Below, in pieces: positions 39,502 to 63,611 of a stretch of DNA of 64,000 bases. Under the pieces are notes generated by a model. The model had not been told where the DNA came from and did no database searches. It saw only the letters and a list, made by a program, of their open reading frames with translations. Position numbers and translations under genes: made by a program. Origin of the DNA: a virus (taxonomy: Duplodnaviria > Caudoviricetes); the IMG/VR virus record IMGVR_UViG_3300021387_000075. One strand, given 5' to 3'. How positions within the stretch are numbered: the first letter of the stretch is position 1; every line of letters begins with the position of its first letter.

Positions 39502-39945
39502 TTATTTGAGAAAATCGTTTTTACTTAGTCTTTCTTTATAGATAGACTAAATCCATTCGTATTCGGTATCGAATACTCCATTTTGATCGCCGGTTTTCTT
39601 TAATAGCGCTTTGTACTTATCATGTAGGTCTGAGATATGTCTAAATTCATCCTAAGAATGTTTATCTCCATGCCTACATGAGTTCGCAAAGTCTAAGATT
39701 TCCCAACGAATTCGGTCCTTTTCATTTGCATCCACATTATCCTATAAATCTGAAACCTAATCAGCTATGTCATCTATCTTATTATTGATATCGTGTGTTA
39801 AATTTTTTCCGATCCATTTAATAAGCGATGAGATTGGGTTCCATTTAATAGGAGTAATTTGGATGAAAATGGAGAATATTAGAAAGACTTGGACGAAGTT
39901 ATGCACAAGCCAATCTAATATGCGTTCAAGCTAAGCTTGATCCAT
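39502..39945 (-). CDS. membrane-associated phage protein, possibly holin-like (5 in-frame TAG)
   Basis: GGAGGTG RBS; MDQA*LERILDWLVHNFVQVFLIFSIFIQITPIKWNPISSLIKWIG...RIRWEILDFANSC; 148 codons to TAA. Confidence 0.7.
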
Positions 39946-40020
39946 TGGTGTCACCTCCAGTTGGAAGTTTTATATATAAACTCTATCGTGGGATAGAGAT
40001 TTATAACACGATAAATTTAT

Positions 40021-42447
40021 TTATAAATGACCATTTAAGATATCAATTATATCAATCATACCAGCAAGAAATGTAATCTAAATCTAGACTGATTTAGAAT
40101 TAGCTGCGAACGTTTCCGCCCACTAAGATTGTTTAGTGGTTACAACATCGTTTGATGTTCTAGTACCGATTTCATTTTTTTCAGAAACATTATTAATGAT
40201 ATTTGCGCGCGAGCCATTACTTTTTTTATTAAAAGCTTCTGTTCCTTTTAAATATTCACTATCTAATTGTGAATATGCATCTAATAATCCATTATATGTT
40301 AATTGTAATATAAAGGATGAAGGATAGTAATTTCCATTTAAATAATATAAATGTAGAAATTTTGAACCATTATAGCTAGACAAACGATAGCGTTCATCTA
40401 ACTATTTTCGTAGATATACAGCTTGCTATCCCGCATCATCAAACATCAACATAACTGCTACCGTAGATAAAATATTTTCTATTGGCTCTTTATAATCAGA
40501 GCCAATTAAACCGGCTCCTGCATTATAAATTGCAAAAGTTAGCCATTCAACGTCTGGAAATGAAATACCGCCATACTAAAACATTTTCTAGATATTTTCT
40601 AATTGATGCTCTACAGTTCCACCAATTGATCCACCGTGAAATCCATGTTTATTGTCATATTTATTATAGCTTTTTACAGTTGAGCCGATAGAAACGGAAT
40701 TTTTTAAATTAGAAAGTACCGATTGAATTTCATCTACCTTTACTCCTTTTCTTTTTAACTATGCGGTAATCTATTCAATTTCTTTTTCTTTTATTGCTAA
40801 TCTTCTCATGGTTTCTGCTTCAATTGAAAATTCCTATGATCCAAATTTTTTATCTTGTCGAAAAGTTTTTTCATTAAATTTTATATTTTTACTATTAATA
40901 TCAACATCGGTAATTTCTAGAGAATCCATATAATTTTTTGTAATTTGCTAAGCAATATAAGCCCAGTCAACATTCTGTGGAATTAAGGCCACCTTTCCGA
41001 TTTCTATACCCGCAACGTCGGCTTTTTGTGTCCCAAAGGTTAAAAATATTGCACGTAACTGTCCAATAAGCGTTGGAGCTTTATTTAATGTCCAACTTGA
41101 AAAGCCTTCTGAAATTATATTGTCTTTCGCTGCTATTTGTACCTTAACCAATTTTTGATTTTTAATTAATTCATTAGCAATTCCAACAATTTCTTGTGCA
41201 TTCCATTTTTTAGCTTTTATTTTTATTGGTTTGTTACGATAAGTTTCAGAAAGAGCCTGAAAAAGATTGTCTTTGGTCCAAACTTTTTTATTACTAACGG
41301 AAGTTTTTTTCTTGTTTTTTGCTAGTATTGACTATATTAAATTAATAATATCTTGTGAGAGATTATTGATTGAATGTCCATCATCACCGACGGATAGCGA
41401 TATATCATTTTTAACTTCTTTTATAATTCTATCTGTAGATAACGTAAGCTGCTACTCTGCTTTTAATAAAGTTTCTGCTTCTCCTTTTAACGAAGTTAAT
41501 AAATGGCGTTCTAAGGCCATACTGGTAGTTTCTCCAGGCTAAATATCTAATTTATCTAAAAATGTTCGTACAAAATTATCTACTTCTGTCTAATTTAATG
41601 TTACTTTATATTCTTTTTCATCAAAATAGCTAGTTAACATACCCTAACTTTCCGTTAATATTTCCTAAATTAAATATGCAGTTACCTATTGTTCATACCC
41701 TTTTAAACCAGTATTTAAAACCGCATTTTCGATCTATGTGCGAAAATCAGTATTATTCCAAATTTTATTATAAATGGAATTAAATTGATTTTGAATAGTA
41801 TTTGCCATAGTTTTAGTATTAAATCCAAATTGCTAATCCGCCCTAGAGATCCACTTTTTATCATCTCTAGCTCCTTCAATTAAAAATTGGCGAAAGGCAA
41901 CATAAAAACTAGAATCTTTATATTCTAAGAGATTCGTTTCTTTATTTTTAATCTAAATTGTATAAGTTCCATCTGGATTTTGAGTATAATGTTTATGAAA
42001 TTCATCATATAATTCCTATAATTTGGTTAAACGTTTTGATTCATATTCTAAATTTTTTTTATAATTATCTAATCCAGTATAATATTCATTAATCATATTT
42101 ATAAAAGCAACATAATCAATAGTTCCTTCAGTAGAAAGAATATCAGAGCAACGTTTTCTAATCCCGGGTGTTAACTTATCATTATTTGCGATATTAGTTA
42201 TAAAATATTCACGTTCATTCTTCTATTCATTTTCAATCATGGCTTTCAAAAAATCCATAGCTCCTTTAATAATTTCTAGCCCTTCATCATTATCTGGCGT
42301 TATTGAATTAAGATTAGAAGCGAGAACGCTTTTAACAGCATTGCCTAGTTCCGTACCTTCTAAAGATTTAAAGAAAAAATATCGACTACCAGTTGTAACA
42401 CTACTCTCTGGGAAATATACATCAAAATATTGTTTATTTTCAGGCAT
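40021..42447 (-). CDS. large hypothetical protein, 808 aa (23 in-frame TAG)
   Basis: GGAGGGAG RBS and ATG at 42447; no TAA/TGA in frame until 40021; joins track fragments 42223..42501, 40948..41151 and 40123..40383. Confidence 0.9.
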
Positions 42448-42516
42448 ACTCTCCCTCCCATTAAAAAAATAAAGCCATTCTTTCGAATAGCTTCTCCTCA
42501 AAGATAAGTCCTAATA

Positions 42517-55329: not shown

Positions 55330-55678
55330 TTTTACTCCCTCATTTAAATTTTTGCTTTAAAGCAAAGTTCATAGTACCGTATTTATTATATTTTAAATAA
55401 TAATAAACCAAAGCAATAACTCCGAATAGCAGATTTTTCTATGGATAATATCTAGGATTTCCTTGACAAGTTACAACTACTGTCCAATTATAATTCTTAT
55501 TCATAATTTACCCTCAATAAAATTAGATGTGCTATTACGCCAAATTTCTTTTCTATTACCCACCGCACTTCATACTTATAGGGCATATAATTGTAAGCCT
55601 ATAATACATTTCGCACGAATGGAGAAAAGAAAACTCTTTAGCTGATGGCTGCTTCTAAGCCCACAGTTCTAAATTAAG

Positions 55679-55765
55679 CGACACTAGCACGACTCGAACG
55701 TGCATACCCTTTTACAGATACCCTCGTCTTAGCAGGACGGGGCGTTACCATTCCGCCATAGTGTC
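55679..55765 (-). tRNA. tRNA-Ser(GCT)
   Basis: GACACTA/TAGTGTC acceptor, CT-GCT-AA loop, long variable arm, GTTCGAGTC. Confidence 0.9.
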
Positions 55766-56064
55766 ATTCTTCTTTATGATACTTGTATTCCTCTGGAAGA
55801 ATTACTTGAAGGAATTGTCTAAAATATTTTGCCATATCTTCAGTAGATTTGAAACCAACAATTGTTTGTGGTTCATATGCACATTTATATAACACCATAT
55901 CCATTATTCTTAAACAATTATAAACTTCTTTTAACTTATCTTCCATAATACCTCCAATAAATAAAACGCCGCGGAAGAGTTGCAGATACTACTCTGCCTC
56001 TTACAACAGGAACAATCCAACGCGGCAAATCTATTAGCGCCGAAGCGCGAATATTTAATTAAAC

Positions 56065-56160
56065 TAGGCCATTGTGATTTGAAGGACTTGAACCTTCTCA
56101 AAAATTTTATGAAAGCAAATTTTCTTTAACCTATTTTTGAAATTATGCTGTAATGGCCTA
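56065..56160 (-). ncRNA. Y-RNA-like element A: terminal stem + ACAGC, enclosing degenerate tRNA arms
   Basis: TAGGCCATT/AATGGCCTA stem followed by ACAGCA; perfect T-arm GAAGG-TTCAAGT-CCTTC. Confidence 0.6.
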
Positions 56161-56165
56161 TAAAC

Positions 56166-56279
56166 TAGACAGTATTAGTACGCCGCTCTACCAATTGAGC
56201 TATCTTCCTAAAGGAAAAAATGGACTCGAACCATTAACACGCGGATCCTCAGTCAAGAAAATAAGGCTGTAACTGTCTA
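56166..56279 (-). ncRNA. YrlA-like circularly permuted tRNA mimic (T-arm, closed acceptor stem, D-arm)
   Basis: TAGACAGT/ACTGTCTA terminal stem + TACAGC; AATGG-TTCGAGT-CCATT, TTTTCC-TTTA-GGAAGA, TA-GCTC-AATTGGTA-GAGC in that order. Confidence 0.8.
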
Positions 56280-56283
56280 TAAG

Positions 56284-56357
56284 TCCGAGTAGCGAGATTT
56301 GAACTCACGACTTCCTGCTCCCGAAGCAGGCGCTCTACCAAGCTGAGCTACACCCGG
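56284..56357 (-). tRNA. tRNA-Pro(CGG)
   Basis: CCTGC-TTCGGGA-GCAGG anticodon arm; TAGCTCAGCTTGGTAGAGC; GTTCAAATC. Confidence 0.93.
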
Positions 56358-56465
56358 AAATGCGGCTTTCGCCGCGAACGAAAGGAGATGATTCACAAAT
56401 GTTTTGCAAGCTCAATTCTGTTGCCTCTTATATCTACTCTTATCTCTCTTTCTGTAATTATTATA

Positions 56466-57458
56466 TCATAAATTTTCTTCATTGTCAAGCATTTGATCTT
56501 TCATTTCTTCAAGTTTGCGCCTATCGGAAATTGTATTTTCACCATGTTTAGATAGTCCTCGGCACAAAGGGCATGAGCAATAGATAGCGTTTTTTGAATA
56601 TTGATGAAGGTTATCATACCATCCTTCAGGCCAACGATAAACTTCTTCTACAATTTTACGCTTACGAATAGCTTTCTTCCAATCATTATGACGTTTCTCT
56701 GCGGTATTACGCATAGGCATCACTCCCATGGATATTTATTTATTTTTACTGGTATATCATTATACCACTTTTTACGCGCTCCGCAATTGGGACAATAGCG
56801 ATATAAAAGATTGATTTCTTGCTTCAGATTAAAGCCTTGTTTATTGCGCGAACAAGCATAATCAAAGCCACATGAGCAATGAGCGTACCATGCTATATCA
56901 CCTAAGTATTTTCTTATTTCCCAATGATGATCAATACTCCGGCCCTTCCTCATGGCGCCTCCATAAATATAACTGGCTTTCCGTGCTTATACGCGTAAGC
57001 AATTTCACTTTTAGTGCTTTCACCAATATATCCATTCTTATTGATTATAAAAATTTCATCAGCCATATCAATTTTACGCTTGTGGATATCATCGAGCATT
57101 ATTTTTTGTTCTTCGGTAAAAACATCCCCACTATGGCCAAAGCACCCTACGCTAAGTACAATATTACCAGCAAGAGTAAGTTCTTTATTAACACGTTCAA
57201 AATCCTCCTTGAAACGAGTACTTCCGCATAGCGTTATTACATGATAGTTACCAATCATTCACCCACCGCCTTAGAAATAAAATCATGAAGATACATAAGA
57301 AAATCTTCATCTTCCACATAAAAAGGATCATTACCATGCTCGTTTTTATATGCTAAACAAGCATTCACCATTAGCTGGCTCAGGCGCCAATCAGGAACCA
57401 TTCCCCAAATTGTAGCAAGCGCATCGCAATAAGGTTTAATTCGATTTGGATTTCTCAT
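56466..57458 (-). other. four small ORFs, including 56950..57258 (deoxyribosyltransferase/TIR-like fold)
   Basis: ITLCGSTRF...KIDMADEIFIIN..GYIGESTKSEIAYA. Confidence 0.65.
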
Positions 57459-57561
57459 GTATATCCTCCAATTATCAAAATAATGCGGTTTCCCGGGTAT
57501 CCTTGTAAGAGCACATTACCGCAAAGAGCTATCTTACCTTTCTTATCCCTATGCTTAAAAG

Positions 57562-57632
57562 CAGGGGAACTAGGATTCGAACCTAGACCACAAATTTTGG
57601 AGATTCGGATGCTGCCGTTACACCATTCCCCT
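57562..57632 (-). tRNA. tRNA-Trp(CCA)
   Basis: CGAAT-CTCCAAA-ATTTG; GGTTCGAATCC. Confidence 0.92.
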
Positions 57633-57733
57633 ACGTGCACCATTTTCTCATAACGTTATAAACGGTGCCAAACTTGTCCGGATAGGAATGACGGTCATGA
57701 CTCCGTCTTACTGGCCCCTATCAGCCAGCATCG

Positions 57734-57806
57734 TGCGCCATCGGAGACTCGAACTCCGCACGCCAGCATTAAAAGTGCTGTGCTCTACCAGATGAGCTAA
57801 TGGCGC
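57734..57806 (-). tRNA. tRNA-Lys(TTT)
   Basis: CAGCA-CTTTTAA-TGCTG; GTTCGAGTC. Confidence 0.95.
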
Positions 57807-57810
57807 ATAT

Positions 57811-57885
57811 TGGTGCCTAGGGGTGGAATCGGACCACCGCATGGGAGATTTTCAGTCTCCAGCCTTTCCATTTGGCTACCCAGGC
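57811..57885 (-). tRNA. tRNA-Phe(GAA), CCA encoded
   Basis: GGAGA-CTGAAAA-TCTCC; variant T-loop TCCGATT. Confidence 0.9.
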
Positions 57886-58108
57886 ACGAAGAGCGGACGC
57901 ATCCGCTCAACGAAGGCTTAGGCCGAAGCCAACCGCCGCAATTCATTTTTGTATAATTCTATAAGTATATGTTGGCATATGATAGTCTTTCGACCATTTA
58001 CCTTTACCGAAGTAGAATCGAAAATAATCATTATGTTCTTCTACTCCTTCAATTTCATATTGGCTACTCATCTCAACCCAATGATTTGTTAATTCAACTA
58101 TCATTAAA

Positions 58109-58648
58109 TTACGGCCATTCTCCCAATGGGAAACCAAGTCCTGCGCGCTCTACATTCGTGTTGAAAAATACACCTGCTGTTGCGGGGCCAGTTAAAAGCT
58201 CGCTGGCAATAGTTTCATAAAGGGTGCTAATAATGCCGTGGCAATCGTTTAGATTATCCGCAGCAAACTGTACTACACAGTTATTAAATACAACATAAGT
58301 AGTACCAATCCATTGGTAGCCTTCTTCGGCTGGGCACTTGGAATATGCGTAAGCCGGATTCTTCGAGAAAGCCGTATCAAATAGCTCAACCTTACTTGTG
58401 AAAGCACGGTTACTGGGCTTACCATCAACAATTACCTTTAGTGTCACATTGCCAAACTTAATTTCTTCAGGTAGAATTTGTAGAAGAGCAGCAACCTTAT
58501 CCCCGTTGTTACAAGCTAGAACAACGCAAGGATGGGAGCCAGAAAAGTCAGTATTAAAAGCAATCTGTGGATCACCATCAAATAGAGCTTCTAGCTTTCT
58601 GATTACAATTGTCCAGGGTGGTAGAATCTTTAGTCTCGGTTCATTCAT
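58109..58648 (-). CDS. hypothetical protein within tRNA cluster
   Basis: GGAGG RBS before MNEPRLKILPPW; VVQFAADNLND..G..STLYE. Confidence 0.75.
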   Translation of the reverse strand: MNEPRLKILPPWTIVIRKLEALFDGDPQIAFNTDFSGSHPCVVLACNNGDKVAALLQILPEEIKFGNVTLKVIVDGKPSNRAFTSKVELFDTAFSKNPAYAYSKCPAEEGYQWIGTTYVVFNNCVVQFAADNLNDCHGIISTLYETIASELLTGPATAGVFFNTNVERAGLGFPLGEWP

Positions 58649-58694
58649 ATTATAGGTACCTCCAAAATGAATTATATGCGCTTTTCGCGCAAAG

Positions 58695-58766
58695 TCTCCA
58701 GCCGACGATTTGAACGCCGATTTCATGGTCCGTAGCCATGTGTTCTCTCCCTTAGACTAGCCGGAG
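58695..58766 (-). tRNA. tRNA-Arg(ACG)
   Basis: CATGG-CTACGGA-CCATG; GTTCAAATC. Confidence 0.88.
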
Positions 58767-58885
58767 ATAGTGTGCTACCTTTATGGGCCGTGGTCCGCAT
58801 GCAAAGCCTAAGCGTGTGCCCTCTCGCAGTAGTAGCACGGGATGCGTCAAATCCATCCACTGGGTTGTCAGCTGAACAACAATCG

Positions 58886-58959
58886 TACCTCCCATGAGAT
58901 TTGAACTCATACTGTATACGTTCTTAGCGTATTATCTCTGCCAGTTGGATTAGAGAGGC
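58886..58959 (-). tRNA. tRNA-Leu(AAG) lacking a long variable arm
   Basis: ATACG-CTAAGAA-CGTAT; 74 nt; discriminator A. Confidence 0.85.
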
Positions 58960-59131
58960 ATAGATACTTTGTTAGGCTCTGCAGCGCCTATCTAACAGGC
59001 TTCAAAGTATAATTGCCTGGCCCTTTCATCATCGGTGCAAATGCTCACGCTTGTTTATTATAGTCCCTGCATTGTGAGGCCCCAAGACTTTCCATTTTGC
59101 CGATTGAATACGGTAAGCGCATGGATACGCT

Positions 59132-59217
59132 TGGTGCGCCGGGGTGGAGTCGAACCACCGATGTTTCTTCGTCGTGGATTTACAGTCCACTGTCTTCGCC
59201 ACTGGACATACCGACGC
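59132..59217 (-). tRNA. tRNA-Tyr(GTA), CCA encoded
   Basis: GTGGA-CTGTAAA-TCCAC; long variable arm; GGTTCGACTCC. Confidence 0.93.
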
Positions 59218-59480
59218 ATAATACGCGGTCTAAGGTGCCGCAAACCCTATCCTTGAACCGCAGGAACTCAGGATAGATTAGTTCCATATAATATCAAGCA
59301 GAGCAGACATAATCTGTTTCATATATTGCTATTGTTCCTACAGCTCAATGGTTACTTGATTTTTACCAACCACTCGCATCCCACCGCCCTGTTCTACTCG
59401 GTTAGAGGTCACTGTCACGTTATTCACGAACTTCCTCATCGCCTAAGTAGTCATGCGCCAAAGCCTTGTCCGTTGGTATA

Positions 59481-59702
59481 TTAAAATGTTTTAATTTCAA
59501 GTTCTTCTGCTTTAACATAAGGCCGTTCATCCGGGCCCTTACTGTAATCCATCCACCAATAACTATGAGATTCAATCTGTGATTTCTTCAATTCAACATA
59601 TGCTGCAATGTTATTTGTGTTTACATATTCTCTTTCTATACGCCAATTTCTACATTCACAATCAGTATACCGTTCAATAAAAACCACATAAATCTTTTTC
59701 AT
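59481..59702 (-). CDS. hypothetical protein
   Basis: 73-aa ORF with AAAGGA RBS. Confidence 0.6.
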   Translation of the reverse strand: MKKIYVVFIERYTDCECRNWRIEREYVNTNNIAAYVELKKSQIESHSYWWMDYSKGPDERPYVKAEELEIKTF

Positions 59703-59727
59703 AATTTTTTCCTTTCAGAATTTTTAA

Positions 59728-59802
59728 TGGAGCCTCCAGACGGATTCGAACCGCCATAAGCGCCTTACGAAGACGCCGTACTTGCCGTTGTACGATGGAG
59801 GC
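59728..59802 (-). tRNA. tRNA-Thr(CGT), CCA encoded
   Basis: GCGTC-TTCGTAA-GGCGC; GGTTCGAATCC. Confidence 0.92.
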
Positions 59803-59916
59803 ATAGTTGAGAGGGAAAGGCGCGATGGTGTTCCGCGCTAGCCGTTTATTGTCATTTCTAAGTCCTCGTCAGGACTTAAGTCCTCGTCAGGATTTTCCTT
59901 CCCTCTTAACATAATT

Positions 59917-59945
59917 ATTATAACAAAATTTTTATTAAAAGTCAA
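59917..59945 (-). promoter_or_regulatory. sigma70-type promoter driving the tRNA/ncRNA cluster
   Basis: TTGACT-N17-TATAAT with extended -10 TG. Confidence 0.8.
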
Positions 59946-60017
59946 ATATTAATTTAATAAGCATTTGAAAATGGATATACTATAAGCATAAAGAATATCA
60001 GTAATCCAATTATAAAT

Positions 60018-60416
60018 TTAAATTTCATGTTTTACCTCTTCTCTAAAAAAGTAAAGTAAGTAAGTATCTGGTTCTAAGCCAGTAAAGTCTACAACAATGC
60101 CTAAATCTTCAGTAATTTCAGCGTCATATAAATATAAGTCATTGTTAATTAGTGCAGACTTGATATGATCATCTGGATGAATTTCAACTGGAATATACCA
60201 AGTAACTTTTTCATAAGGCTTATCTACAATTACCTATACAGCTTCAATTAGTTCGTAACATTCTAAGTCGAAGTCAAATAGTGCTGGATCACATTCTTCA
60301 AACTACATTTCAGGGTCGCATGTAATTAAAGACTTGGTAGATACAGACGGCGCGGCCGCGGCGAATAAGGGAAACGTAAGTAATAAACATAATATAAGTA
60401 AAATAAGTTTTTTCAT
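60018..60416 (-). CDS. putative secreted acidic protein with signal peptide (2 TAG)
   Basis: MKKLILLILCLLLTFPLFAAAAP...; 133 codons to TAA; AGGAGA RBS. Confidence 0.75.
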
Positions 60417-60417
60417 T

Positions 60418-60834
60418 TTAACTCTCCTATGATAAATAAAATGTCACCTAAGACATTAATTTTTTACTAAAGTAAACAATTTCTAAAACATCTGTATTTG
60501 TTGTGAATATTTTAGGTAAAAACTAATAGTGCATATTTACCTATGTATAGTATTCTACATAATTTAATCCAATTTTACAGAAAAAATAAAATCTAATCCA
60601 TGCTTGTTCTGTAATATTGTATGAAGTAATACTCCATAATTTAGCGCATACTTTATCAATAAATTGAATTGCTCTTGGCATATCCTTCCTAGAATAATTA
60701 CTGTCATAAAGTAAATTACCAATTAGTATTATAGAATTAGTGGATTCTGTATTTAAGTATAACGATAAATCTTCAGTAGAAAAATTAGAGCACCTTTTAA
60801 ACGCGAATAATAAATGTAAATAAGCAGTATTCAT
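60418..60834 (-). CDS. hypothetical protein in rSAM cluster (4 TAG)
   Basis: Extends track ORF 60541..60834 to TAA at 60418, 1 bp before the next ATG. Confidence 0.7.
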
Positions 60835-61340
60835 GCGCGCTACGTTAAGGAATTAAGATCTGGTATAATTTCTATATTATCAAGTTGATCTAATAACTAC
60901 TGAATTTCATTTACACGTTCTGAATGATATAAAATTAAAGTTTGCGTATAATAATACTTTAATATTTTCTATAATTCTATTACTTCTATTTTTTGAACTT
61001 CAGCGCTAATAATAGAATTGAGTAAGTTAAGAGTTGTAGTATCCGATTCATTAACTGGTTGTAAGCGCTATACGATATATGCACTAATTATGTTTTGCTC
61101 TGCTTCTGTATAGTAAGAATTATATAGTGCCTAAATAATATTAGATACATATGAATAATTATCACTAAATGAAGCTGTATAGGCTGAAGAAGCACATCTT
61201 TCTATAGCCGCTAGCACGATTCCAATTGGATATTCAAATCTGCTTAAAGCAGTATCAAAAGATGTAAAATCATTAATATTAAATGGTTCCCTATTTTGAA
61301 ATAGTTTTAAAAGTTTTAATTCTATAGTTAAACTAGACAT
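60831..61340 (-). CDS. hypothetical protein in rSAM cluster (5 TAG)
   Basis: AAGGAGG RBS; read-through ends at TGA overlapping the next ATG (ATGA). Confidence 0.75.
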
Positions 61341-61351
61341 GTTTTTCCTCC

Positions 61352-61891
61352 TTATTTATGTCCTGGTACTGAAGAAGCTTCATTACTACAGCTACCATGA
61401 GCAGTTGTACAAACATCTGCACAAGTTTTAGAACATGCTGCTCCACATGTCCCAGCACAGCCGCCCGAACAACTACTACAACTGCCTTTACATTTACCCG
61501 TACATGAGCTTTCGCAGCCACCTTTACATCCGCTTTTACACCCGCCACTACATGAATTATAGCATAAACCACGGCAGCTACTACCTGTACAGTCAGTACT
61601 AGCAGAGGTTGCCGGCGTGTCCTCATAATTTGCTAAAGCAATATTGGCAGCGGAAATATCTTTAATAGCATTTGACTAAATACCAGTAGCCTTAATTAAA
61701 TTAATAAAACCTACTGTTTCATTAAAATGAGTTAATCTGGCAAGTTCGTTTCTATTAGCTGAATTTGTAAAATTAGTAGCATAAGATGCGAGGCTATCTT
61801 TGAATTTTCTTCTTGACATTTCAGCTTTTACTCGATTTTTAAAAGCAATAATATCATTAGATAATATTGCAGATCCCTATTGTAAGCCCAT
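61352..61891 (-). CDS. CxxxC-repeat Cys-rich protein, candidate rSAM substrate/RiPP precursor (179 aa, 17 Cys, 2 TAG)
   Basis: ~100-aa leader then DCTGSSCRGLCYNSCSGGCKSGCKGGCESSCTGKCKGSCSSCSGGCAGTCGAACSKTCADVC; not in ORF track. Confidence 0.88.
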
Positions 61892-61902
61892 TAAAATCAC
61901 CC

Positions 61903-63165
61903 TTATTTTGCTAATTGCATTAATAATTTTAATTCATTTTCAGGAATAATCTGTAATGCAATTTCTTTATTTAATAATACGGGAATACGTTTATTAATAT
62001 TATTTTGTATATACATTTTATTCCAATAATAACTACTAATTAATACACCTGCTCGGTAAATCCAGCAGATATTAGTATTTCGTATATTGACGGCTCCTTC
62101 TGATTTATAATTCCATCCAGCGCACATGGGGCACATACCGTGAATATTACAGTTTGAACATTGATTATTTTGCATTGTTAAATTTATGTTATATTTTTTT
62201 AACCATTCAGAAGTTGGTGAGATACCATTAATATTACCTATTGAAATAGGATTATTTAATGAACTATTCATAAAACGCAAGCAAGGATACGCAATTCCAC
62301 TGGGATCAAAAGAAATGGTCTAACCAAAAGCGCCACAAGTAATATTATCTTGATGATAATCATAAATTTGATCTAAGTTTTCATAAAATAAACTAGTATA
62401 GATACTTGGATTTTTAAGTAAAGAATCAGCAATTGATTTTAATTCAAAATAATACTATGTTGCTTCCTACTATGTCCATTTATGTTCAAATATTGGTCCG
62501 CCAATTATTACCTTACAGCCTATATCGGTAAAGAATTTATAGATTTCATGTAAATATAATAAATTATCTGGAGTAACAGTAATTTTAGTATTTGGATACC
62601 CTTTAGTTTTACTCCAATAATCTTTAAACGCCGCAATTGCCATATCAAAACTACCATATCCTTTTTTATCTTTTCTACAGGCATCATGCATTATTTTTGG
62701 CCCATCAATAGTAATACTTAATTTTACAAAATCTTCAAACTCTTTAAGATATTTCTATACTTGTTTAGTAAAATATAATGTACCATTAGTAGATAAAGAA
62801 AAGCTAAAATTAGTTAGCCAGGGATGCTATTGTTTTATACACTAATCAATAAAATACCAACTTCCATAATAAATAGTGTCAATATTCATTAAGGTTTCGC
62901 CGCCGATGAACTCCAATGTAACTCCTTTGGTGTGCTAATTAATAATAGTATTTTTCTAGTTTTCTTTATACTAATTAAATAATAAATCAATACACGATTG
63001 CATTATACTTTTTGTCATAGATTCATTGCCTTTATTTGTCTAATAACAATATGAACAATTTAAATTGCATTTATTAGTGACCTAAAAAGTAATACGACGA
63101 TAATTTGCATCTGGATCATCATCTAAATACGGTAACAATGAAATATAATCTATTGGAGAATCCAT
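61903..63165 (-). CDS. radical SAM/SPASM peptide maturase, CXXX-repeat-target type (12 TAG)
   Basis: ITF*VTNKCNLNCSYCY*TNKG, EFIGGETL, STNG, SITIDG, CGAFG...AYPC, CSNCNIHGMCPMC. Confidence 0.92.
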
Positions 63166-63431
63166 TATTCACACTCCACAGTTTGATTAAAAAAATTTAC
63201 TTTACATTTACGCCATTCTGTTTCTGGACAATATTTCTAATTCAAAAGCCTTTTAGCAGTATCTAGTTCAATTTTGTACATAATTGCATTACTAAAATTT
63301 TCTTGTATAAATTCATCATCTTTATTTATTCCATGTTTTAATAAATATTTAAGAATATGTAAATGAGCTTCATATATTTTTAGCAATGCTTCAATTTCAT
63401 CCGATTCATCGCGTGTAATATTAATAGTCAT
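63165..63431 (-). CDS. small accessory protein of the CXXX-repeat modification cluster (1 TAG)
   Basis: Read-through of TAG 63237 ends at TAA overlapping the rSAM ATG (TAATG); 88 aa. Confidence 0.75.
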
Positions 63432-63527
63432 ATTATTCTCCTATTAAAAATAGCCCCATACGGGGCAAATTCAGCAGTAGGTTGCTAGCCCCACATACGT
63501 TTATACACTTATTTGGTATCGTGTAAG

Positions 63528-63611
63528 TGCCCGAGGCCGGACTTGAACCGGCACGCTCAAAAGAGCAACAGATTTTAAGTCTGTGGTGTCTGCCTATTCC
63601 ACCACTCGGGC
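63528..63611 (-). tRNA. tRNA-Leu(TAA)
   Basis: ACAGA-CTTAAAA-TCTGT; long variable arm; GGTTCAAGTCC. Confidence 0.95.

Follow-up and report, generated by a model that had tools for sequence, protein, structure and literature searches.

A TAG-recoded phage gene cassette, likely a CXXX-repeat radical-SAM system

On the minus strand between positions 60018 and 63431 of the window (the whole stretch of phage DNA analysed here, 64,000 nt long), translation with table 11 gives no open reading frame (ORF) longer than 125 aa. When TAG is read as glutamine, six abutting, co-directional genes (g1 to g6, running from 63431 to 60018) appear in the same segment, and the features of the locus are the following:

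63527-63611: tRNA-Leu(UAA), upstream of g1 and beyond the terminator-like hairpin
63453-63466, minus strand: GC hairpin followed by a T-run, terminator-like, between tRNA-Leu(UAA) and g1
63165-63431, minus strand: g1, 88 aa with 1 TAG, ORF called with TAG as Gln
61903-63165, minus strand: g2, 420 aa with 12 TAG, radical-SAM/SPASM enzyme
61352-61891, minus strand: g3, 179 aa from its ATG with 2 TAG, Cys-repeat protein and presumed substrate (an alternative GTG start at 61900 gives 182 aa)
60831-61340, minus strand: g4, 169 aa with 5 TAG, unknown function
60418-60834, minus strand: g5, 138 aa with 4 TAG, unknown function
60018-60416, minus strand: g6, 132 aa with 2 TAG, signal-peptide-like N-terminus

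The genes are tightly packed, with g1 and g2 sharing a TAATG, g4 and g5 overlapping by 4 nt and the remaining gaps being only 1-11 nt long. An AGGAG ribosome-binding site lies 8 nt 5' of the g1 ATG and, judging from the sequence alone, g1 would be translationally coupled to g2 through the TAATG overlap, and the terminator-like hairpin would mark the upstream edge of the cassette. A promoter scan at the cassette gave a signal no better than that of shuffled sequence. The surroundings in the window consist of a tRNA array beside replication genes, with no adjacent tail genes; the DNA polymerase is of the Pol III alpha/YorL-like type and shares about 35% identity with the YorL protein of SPbeta-like phages. 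When the cassette DNA was compared with the phage collection, the sole match ran through the flanking tRNA-Leu.

ORFs with a minimum length of 100 aa cover a fraction of 0.26 of the 60-64 kb bin under the standard code and 0.88 with TAG as a sense codon, the corresponding controls being 0.26 (TGA sense) and 0.54 (TAA sense). The open frames exceed chance. Additionally, the dN/dS values of g1-g6 against contig L001 (which is collinear with the window and 94.6-99% identical to it) lie between 0.11 and 0.23, and the six genes are therefore under selection. An earlier note, made from the sequence alone, had claimed that the six genes are open only with TAG as sense and are joined by TAATG and ATGA junctions and short gaps; both claims held, the former on the basis of the ORF calls, the coverage change and the dN/dS values.

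The identity of the amino acid inserted at TAG was obtained by comparing 18 recoded sequences with 108 standard-code homologues. Gln is enriched 13.7-fold at the TAG columns, and the conserved TAG columns correspond to Gln in 45 of 51 cases; since the standard-code homologues carry Gln at these positions, TAG is read as Gln in the cassette, which thus meets the criterion for code 15. TAG accounts for 26 of the 48 Gln codons of the cassette, and 24 out of 26 TAG codons are common to the window cassette and L001. Throughout the window, TAG usage is bimodal, 47 of the 67 genes having no TAG at all. No tRNA-CUA was found within the 64,000 nt of the window. A suppressor tRNA-CUA is present in L001 (1113-1201), about 2.8 kb past the window end by collinear mapping, and it is through this contig only that the suppressor of the window lineage was examined. 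In the recoded loci L004 and L007 the tRNA-CUA lies directly upstream of the cassette, and in L089 it is also beside it. The dependence on TAG would confine expression of the cassette to the late phase, after the phage tRNA-CUA has been made. The claims that TAG encodes Gln and that a late code switch gates these genes are, in this way, supported by the Gln columns, the tRNA-CUA and the bimodality of TAG usage.

The best model for g2 is TIGR04115 (CXXX-repeat maturase), matched over positions 3-359 of 359 with 241.3 bits (E 2.1e-71), a score that falls short of the curated 350-bit cutoff and lies 86 bits above the next family. Lower scores were obtained with the PapB family NF047865 (155.1 bits, under its 340-bit cutoff) and with TIGR04463, the CrpC family (58.7 bits only). 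Relatives that use the standard code exceed the TIGR04115 cutoff (385 bits for L025 and 521 bits for L101), and g2 sits on a long branch within the tree of TIGR04115 relatives (FastTree). The radical-SAM motif C33-x3-C37-x2-C40 is invariant in 26 sequences, as are the SPASM cysteines (C277-x12-G-x4-C295, C336-x2-C339-x5-C345-x2-C348 and C367), so that g2 meets the motif criterion of TIGR04115, namely a CxxxCxxC radical-SAM motif plus a seven-Cys SPASM domain. Residues 28 and 42, on either side of C33/C37/C40, are encoded by TAG, and the earlier claim of 12 TAG codons in g2, two of them around this motif, also held. The nearest solved structure is CteB (5WGG, E 4e-29), and because the alignment begins only at CteB residue 87, g2 is taken to be without a fused RRE. 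In the phage collection, close homologues were limited to two uncultured faecal contigs, with no cultured phage among them, and the enzymes of jumbo Salmonella and Erwinia phages are about 21% identical.

In 127 of 141 loci the radical-SAM gene is immediately preceded by a homologue of g1 (88-143 aa), in most cases with an overlap of 1-20 nt between the two, and g1 itself matches the L025 partner with E 2e-5. Its AF2 model (pLDDT 94) predicts a strand, a long helical hairpin and then a beta-hairpin. Searches with this protein (Foldseek and VIA-wide) returned no RRE-like match and only generic helical hairpins (Z up to 8.2), and for this reason it remains undecided whether g1 is an RRE.

The g3 protein consists of a conserved ~100-aa N-domain and, after it, a Cys tract, with 17 Cys in total, 13 of which are in CxxxC spacing, as had been claimed for a 179-aa protein with 17 Cys mostly at every fourth residue. 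A run of cysteines at every fourth residue with small spacers is the layout of the TIGR04114/TIGR04117 targets, and g3 shows it. When the table-15 proteins were searched against HMMs, as the earlier note had proposed, g2 matched TIGR04115 over its full length though below the cutoff, and g3 gave a weak match to TIGR04117 (26.8 bits, under the cutoff of 50). No TIGR04114 match was reported for g3, and its L025 homologue scored 14.8 bits on this model, under the cutoff of 20. A profile search with the N-domain retrieved 607 representative clusters; of its 113 full-length hits, 105 have 8 or more Cys repeats. In 118 relatives, the gaps between cysteines are of 3 residues in 72% of the cases and of 2 residues in 25%, and the intervening residues are chiefly Ser, Thr and Gly. 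Asp and Glu, which are the acceptors for PapB and QhpD, are rare there (about 4%), so that the crosslink acceptor residue cannot be assigned. The substrate homologues are between 157 and 920 aa long and can contain as many as 145 Cys. In some of them, additional folded domains precede, interrupt or follow the repeats (a CBM_4_9-like insert among them). For the C-terminal domain of P0140, no PDB sequence match was found. There is no GG-type cleavage motif at the N-domain end. The AF2 model of the g3 N-domain is weak (pLDDT 66), without any PDB match in Foldseek, and no structural or sequence tie to known tail proteins was found. The Pfam family PF27846 is precomputed on some N-domain proteins, and the sole PHROG match is phrog_6085, of unknown function.

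For g4, g5 and g6 no Pfam, NCBIfam or PHROG family match was obtained. The first of these (dN/dS 0.11) is conserved in position in L007 and L009, and in L004 and L009 the g4 homologue is followed by a weak homologue of g5 (dN/dS 0.23). In the case of g6 (dN/dS 0.14), relatives are confined to the near-identical contigs L001-L003, and its N-terminus (MKK, a hydrophobic run and then AAA) supports the claimed signal peptide by eye only, no predictor having been used. Its place in the cassette is doubtful, and membership of g4-g6 in the system has not been demonstrated. TIGR04116 was absent from the matches of all partner and accessory proteins, although it is uncertain whether this model was present in the library.

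The trio of enzyme, small partner and Cys-repeat substrate was found in 238 viral contigs and in about 60 genomes, nearly all of gut Clostridia, and the three genes occur together in hundreds of gut Bacillota phages and prophages. A same-strand Cys-repeat ORF lies within about 3 kb of the enzyme in most loci, whether from viruses or metagenomes (78 of 88) or from genomes (49 of 53); maturases lacking an adjacent Cys-rich gene, which would have refuted the proposal of the earlier note, are therefore not the rule. There is one clade of 10 recoded loci with enzyme and partner and without a Cys-repeat gene in the flanks fetched. The usual site of the trio is between the tail/tail-fibre genes and the holin/endolysin genes. 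In L025 and in the L101 prophage the order is Dit, minor tail, tail fibre, Cys-rich gene, partner, radical-SAM gene, holin and endolysin, and in L152 it is TMP, Dit, Sipho_Gp37, a protein of 650 aa, a Cys-repeat protein of 522 aa, partner, radical-SAM gene and holin; the 522-aa protein has a non-Cys domain of 189 aa at its C-terminus. Across 29 diverse loci, the named families among the 25 commonest upstream neighbour families are all tail or tail-fibre, and on the downstream side there are tail-fibre, endolysin and holin genes. The trio is also in a tail/lysis context in the recoded L004 and L007. A location at the tail-fibre/lysis junction is shown for these relatives, whereas the window cassette is flanked by tRNA genes instead. 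The interval between tail fibre and lysis genes often houses morons. No peptidase or transporter was found in g1-g6 (Pfam, NCBIfam and PHROG searches), in agreement with the earlier note, nor among the called neighbours of L001-L008 and L152.

We consider it likely that the cassette is a phage-borne, TAG(Gln)-recoded CXXX-repeat radical-SAM system in which g2, together with g1, modifies g3, for which there is no biochemical, proteomic or RNA evidence. In this proposal, g2, which has no fused recognition domain of the CteB type, would probably work with g1 as a dedicated helical-hairpin partner; its target would be the C-terminal Cys tract of g3, recognised via the conserved N-domain, where it would most likely install many short-range intramolecular thioether crosslinks. 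This chemistry is deduced only from homology with CteB, PapB, QhpD and CrpC. The product would then stay an intact protein and would not be an exported bacteriocin; it would either form a stapled stalk or fibre element in the tail of the virion or be set free when the cell lyses. The virion-linked reading is strengthened because the trio of the relatives sits in a tail/lysis context, and we infer that association of the Cys-repeat product with the virion is as plausible as its absence. A bolder version, in which gut Firmicutes phages staple a tail-fibre or receptor-binding shaft with tens of radical-SAM thioether bridges, using a code-locked cassette linked to the suppressor tRNA, is one against which we would lean slightly. 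The non-bacteriocin role claimed at the outset has gained support from the tail/lysis context of the relatives without being proven, and the crosslinked product that had been claimed, its fate and the membership of g4-g6 have not been shown.

Several observations stand against the main reading: the sub-cutoff score and long branch of g2, a window context that is not that of tail genes, the weak N-domain model, the clade with enzyme and partner and no Cys-repeat gene, the scarcity of Asp and Glu, and the frequency of morons between tail fibre and lysis genes.

Other explanations can be considered for the same data. In a classical RiPP or bacteriocin system, the N-domain would be a long cleaved leader (as in Nif11 and NHLP), the core being freed at lysis to act as an antibacterial or a signal. 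This reading is favoured by the membership of g2 in the RiPP-maturase superfamily, by the conserved leader-plus-core layout and by the resemblance of the window polymerase to the SPbeta-like YorL (SPbeta encodes the modified peptide sublancin), and lysis could stand in for an exporter. Nevertheless, we find it unlikely, given that neither a peptidase nor a transporter occurs in the window or in the loci inspected, that the substrates are proteins of 157-920 aa with up to 145 Cys, that some variants carry extra folded domains (including the 189-aa C-terminal domain and the CBM_4_9-like insert), and that the N-domain end lacks a GG-type motif.

It could also be that g3 binds a metal or iron-sulfur clusters, or serves as a redox buffer, and that the enzyme performs another reaction or acts on another substrate. 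Dense CxxC/CxxxC arrays do bind metals in many proteins, metal binding by CrpA was suggested by the authors of PMC13692751, and one clade keeps enzyme and partner with no Cys-repeat gene nearby. Against this stands the tight and widespread coupling between N-domain, repeats and enzyme, as well as the fact that the characterised close relatives of the enzyme (CteB, PapB and QhpD) all make Cys thioethers, and we regard this possibility as very improbable. The remaining alternative is that nothing is made from the TAG-interrupted frames, which would be pseudogenes in decay or ORFs that arose by chance, as might be suspected from every gene being broken under the standard code and from the lack of RNA data. 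It is practically ruled out by the dN/dS of 0.11-0.23 with conserved TAG codons, by the alignment of TAG with invariant Gln of standard-code homologues, by the tRNA-CUA nearby in the same phage lineage and by the catalytic cysteines, all of which are intact.

Returning to the reading as a CXXX-repeat system, the recoded cassette is an accessory pathway wholly dependent on the TAG-to-Gln switch, of a kind missed by standard gene callers and by BGC miners. The TIGR04115 family, defined computationally, gains a concrete setting in the phage and prophage tail modules of Clostridia, and the cassette survey points to cultivable lysogens in which the stapling idea could be tested. Prophages with bona fide TIGR04115 cassettes occur in the cultured strains Anaerolentibacter hominis CSJ-1 (L101), Neglectibacter timonensis SN17 (L122) and Eubacterium pyruvativorans i6 (L124). 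If the product were indeed part of the virion, radical-SAM chemistry of the RiPP type would build viruses and not only antibiotics, amounting to a novel type of maturation for virion proteins and to an undescribed way to harden a part of the virus. A ladder of thioether rings could, in that case, give a thin fibre resistant to gut proteases and to reduction, with relevance to phage host-range biology and to protein engineering.

The known system closest to the cassette is the one defined computationally in NCBIfam by the TIGR04115 enzyme and the TIGR04114 and TIGR04117 targets. Both have a radical-SAM core with a seven-Cys SPASM domain and no N-terminal RRE, and a protein with Cys at every fourth residue beside the enzyme (g3 begins 2-11 nt past g2). 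In contrast, g2 is sub-cutoff and on a long branch, all genes are TAG-recoded and the cassette is phage-borne; furthermore, the libraries searched contain no model for the small partner or for the target N-domain. In the literature searched there was no experimental paper on a TIGR04115/CXXX-repeat system (a single annotation mention only), and nothing relevant on phage SPASM enzymes with Cys-rich proteins or on radical SAM with prophage tail fibres.

Among characterised enzymes, CteB is the closest solved structure to g2 and PapB the closest characterised enzyme. The CteB/SCIFF and PapB/PapA (freyrasin) maturases reportedly have the same three-cluster architecture as g2 and form Cys thioethers, whereas they act on short leader-core peptides that contain few Cys, unlike g3, and the RRE that is fused in CteB is absent from g2. 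PapB uses CX3D motifs, and Asp is rare in the relatives of g3, so that what is expected of a PapB-type system is not met. A precedent for a large Cys-rich protein as substrate, instead of a short peptide, is found in Methanococcus voltae, where the SPASM radical-SAM enzyme CrpC puts ranthionine thioethers on CrpA, a large Cys-rich repeat protein whose N-terminal domain contributes to recognition and whose product function is unknown (Dieter et al. 2026, PMC13692751). The differences are that CrpC belongs to another family (TIGR04463) and carries a fused RRE, which is missing from g2, where a separate partner is present; that CrpA has 17-residue repeats with C-x-x-Q/D, as opposed to CxxxC with Ser, Thr or Gly; and that the CrpC/CrpA system is archaeal and cellular, whereas the window cassette belongs to a phage.

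With respect to the genetic code, the comparison is with code-15 gut phages that carry suppressor tRNAs, such as the crAss-like phages (PMC9523058), and with the phAss-1 group of large Pol III-encoding phages with presumed Eubacteriales hosts (PMC10607447). The word "radical" is absent from the phAss-1 paper, and the likeness is drawn without relatedness data. What these phages have in common with the window lineage is in-frame TAG read as Gln mainly in late/virion genes, a phage-encoded tRNA-CUA, many other tRNAs and a Pol III alpha/YorL-like polymerase.

Read with the bacterial code, positions 60018-63431 contain no minus-strand ORF longer than 125 aa. When TAG is taken as a sense codon, six abutting minus-strand genes appear in this region, and this claim of the earlier note therefore held:

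63165-63431, minus strand: g1, small partner protein (88 aa, TAG as sense)
61903-63165, minus strand: g2, radical-SAM/SPASM enzyme (420 aa, 12 TAG)
61352-61891, minus strand: g3, Cys-repeat protein and presumed substrate (179 aa, 2 TAG)
60831-61340, minus strand: g4 (169 aa)
60418-60834, minus strand: g5 (138 aa)
60018-60416, minus strand: g6 (132 aa)

The genes g1 and g2 overlap in a common TAATG, an AGGAG motif lies 5' of g1, and the interval between g1 and a tRNA-Leu gene holds a terminator-like hairpin. With TAG as sense, ORF coverage in the last 4 kb of the window rises from 0.26 to 0.88, with no rise for TGA and a value of 0.54 for TAA, the gain being specific to TAG. Comparison with the collinear contig L001 (94.6-99% identical) gives a dN/dS of 0.11-0.23 for all six genes, and 24 of the 26 cassette TAG codons are kept there. 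The six are real genes.

More than 1,000 relatives of the radical-SAM protein are present in databases, and many viral and bacterial loci encode the enzyme without any in-frame TAG. In an alignment of 18 recoded and 108 standard-code enzyme sequences, Gln is enriched 13.7-fold at the TAG columns and occupies 45 of the 51 strongly conserved ones; at g2 residues 28, 42 and 137, all encoded by TAG, it is found in 91-99 of the 108 standard-code sequences. None of the ten tRNA genes in the window is a tRNA-CUA; L001 carries one (1113-1201, with a long variable arm), which maps ~2.8 kb beyond the window end. Among distant recoded relatives, a tRNA-CUA lies directly upstream of the cassette in two loci and downstream in a third:

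L004:5577-5667, tRNA-CUA, upstream
L007:5153-5240, tRNA-CUA, upstream
L089:6537-6626, tRNA-CUA, downstream

These four amber suppressors are 88-91 nt long and share the long variable arm; the suppressor gene directly adjoins the cassette in several TAG-recoded relatives and, in L004 and L007, has lysis or tail genes on one side and the gene for the partner on the other. The window's own array surrounds the cassette (55678-63611, all minus strand: Ser, Pro, Trp, Lys, Phe, Arg, Leu, Tyr, Thr, Leu) and goes on in L001 with Glu, Asn, Met, Ile, Gly and the suppressor.

TAG is absent from 47 of the window's 67 minus-strand genes, including the replication genes (Pol III-like polymerase, topoisomerase II, NrdD, RecJ, helicase), and in a minority TAG makes up 33-100% of the gene's own Gln codons (26 of 48 in the cassette). 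This distribution matches the late-gene recoding published for code-15 phages (PMC10607447; PMC9523058). Other recoded minus-strand ORFs were observed. Within the window, TAG recoding is heaviest in a gene for 826 aa lying amid replication-type genes (40021-42501; 23 in-frame TAG, 49% of its Gln codons), which matches no PHROG and lacks homologues in the fetched loci. A 344-aa ORF next to the NrdD gene (1536-2570, 7 in-frame TAG) matches GIY-YIG homing-endonuclease PHROGs in its C-terminal part (E 1e-12 to 4e-15) and, from sequence alone, is probably a recoded homing endonuclease. Because the window polymerase is ~35% identical to YorL of SPbeta-like phages and the genomic relatives of the cassette come almost entirely from gut Clostridia, the host is likely to be a Bacillota bacterium.

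The best model for g2 is TIGR04115 (radical SAM peptide maturase, CXXX-repeat target family), covered over its full length (241 bits, E 2e-71) at a score below the curated cutoff of 350 bits; the PapB family (155 bits), QhpD (97) and the SCIFF maturase (78) follow. Standard-code relatives are formal family members (385 bits in L025, 521 in L101), and we infer that g2 is a divergent relative working in the same way. Its CxxxCxxC motif and seven SPASM cysteines are invariant. The closest solved structure is CteB (5WGG, E 4e-29), and since the alignment begins at CteB residue 87, g2 lacks the fused recognition domain of that protein. In a FastTree tree, g2 occupies a long branch within a well-supported clade (16 of 19 rows recoded) that groups as sister to phage and prophage clades using the standard code. 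A second partner/radical-SAM pair is present in some relatives (94-aa and 430-aa genes in L004:9041-10607; in L009:3523-5075, a partner homologue and a radical-SAM fragment, both located upstream), so the cassette appears able to duplicate.

In 127 of 141 loci the enzyme gene is directly preceded by one for a g1 homologue of 88-143 aa, in most cases with an overlap of 1-20 nt. The confident AF2 model of g1 (pLDDT 94) combines a strand with a long helical hairpin and a beta-hairpin, giving only generic hairpin matches and no recognisable PqqD-like RRE. The database protein P0127 (334 aa) joins an N-domain, Cys repeats and a C-terminal part resembling the partner; a natural fusion and a read-through could both explain it, and it possibly hints that partner and substrate touch physically. 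Genes g4 and g5 recur 3' of the Cys-repeat gene in the closest relatives only, g6 is confined to near-identical contigs, and none of the three has a family match.

In g3, a Cys-free N-domain of ~100 aa precedes a tract with 17 Cys, of which 13 are in CxxxC spacing. Of 88 viral or metagenome loci, 78 have a Cys-repeat ORF (157-920 aa, up to 145 Cys) no further than ~3 kb from the enzyme gene and in the same orientation, as do 49 of 53 genome loci. The ORF either follows the enzyme gene closely, as in the window, or lies 1-2 kb upstream. A profile of the N-domain only, whose conserved features include an LK-x-[KR]-[VI]-K-x-E-M-x-R-R helix, retrieved 607 representative clusters among 1.84 billion proteins; in the top 150 matches, 105 of 113 full-length proteins have at least eight CxxC/CxxxC units, the remainder appearing truncated or frame-shifted. 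In 118 relatives the inter-Cys gaps are of three residues in 72% and two in 25%, filled by Ser, Thr and Gly, with Asp at ~4%, and the tract regularly starts with a C-x3-C-[ST]-G-L-C-x3-C motif. Some variants carry extra N-terminal domains or a CBM_4_9-like insert (E 4.6e-4, below cutoff). The recent Pfam family PF27846 is precomputed on some of the N-domain/Cys-repeat proteins (P0271, P0272, P0286, P0287). In one TAG-recoded clade (L011-L018, L021, L022), partner and enzyme are retained, the fetched flanks lack a Cys-repeat gene, and the place after the enzyme gene is taken by a conserved 112-aa protein rich in Lys and Glu.

As the window cassette is flanked by tRNA genes, a structural (tail) link is inferred from relatives. 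L025 reads virion protein, collagen-like tail fibre, Cys-repeat gene, 170-aa gene, partner, radical-SAM gene, 85-aa gene, holin and endolysin; Dit, minor tail and tail-fibre-like genes enclose the cassette in the L101 prophage (Anaerolentibacter hominis). L152 runs from tape-measure protein, Dit, Sipho_Gp37 and a 650-aa gene to a 522-aa Cys-repeat protein, partner, radical-SAM gene and holin; this Cys-repeat protein ends in a 189-aa non-Cys domain, a layout we read as N-domain, repeat shaft and head. The cassettes of the recoded L004 and L007 are closely preceded by genes for a tail protein, a fibre-like protein with a CBM, a holin and an amidase. Among 29 diverse standard-code loci, each of the 25 commonest upstream PHROG families that has a name is a tail or tail-fibre one (PHROGs being fine-grained, the count for each family is small), and tail fibre, endolysin and holin lie downstream. 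A 150-aa TAG-rich protein (39502-39954, minus strand; phrog_37604, a family without assigned function) was also observed 20 kb from the cassette, with homologues 0.4-4 kb downstream of it in eight other loci, for example:

L118:9685-10017, phrog_37604-protein homologue
L053:9609-9905, phrog_37604-protein homologue

The reading best supported, and in our judgement probable, has three steps: the code switch would allow translation of g1-g3; g2, helped by g1, would bind g3 through its N-domain; and g2 would then form a ladder-like series of small thioether rings along the Cys tract (by analogy; acceptor residue and linked carbon undetermined). The product would be an intact, stiff protein resisting proteases and reduction, its final location undetermined. 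That the TAG-interrupted frames are pseudogenes is all but excluded, given the dN/dS values and the retained TAG codons. A bacteriocin with a long leader would share the Cys-rich tract and the maturase, and seems unlikely; the loci inspected revealed neither a peptidase nor a transporter. A metal-binding role for g3, for which the regular cysteines might speak, is very improbable beside the recurrent pairing with the enzyme.

The TIGR04115 enzyme-target pairing itself is an already-known computational family, and no paper in the literature searched characterises it or places it in phages. New here are the fully TAG-recoded form of the cassette and its suppressor-tRNA linkage, definitions of the conserved N-domain and the partner, the latter with no recognisable RRE, and a list of cultivable lysogens as material for testing cassette function. 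The closest experimental precedent is CrpC/CrpA: CrpC, a SPASM enzyme, forms ranthionine links in the Cys-rich repeat protein CrpA, whose N-terminal domain helps recognition (PMC13692751), a role we propose for the g3 N-domain as well; QhpD/QhpC is another case with a protein as substrate.
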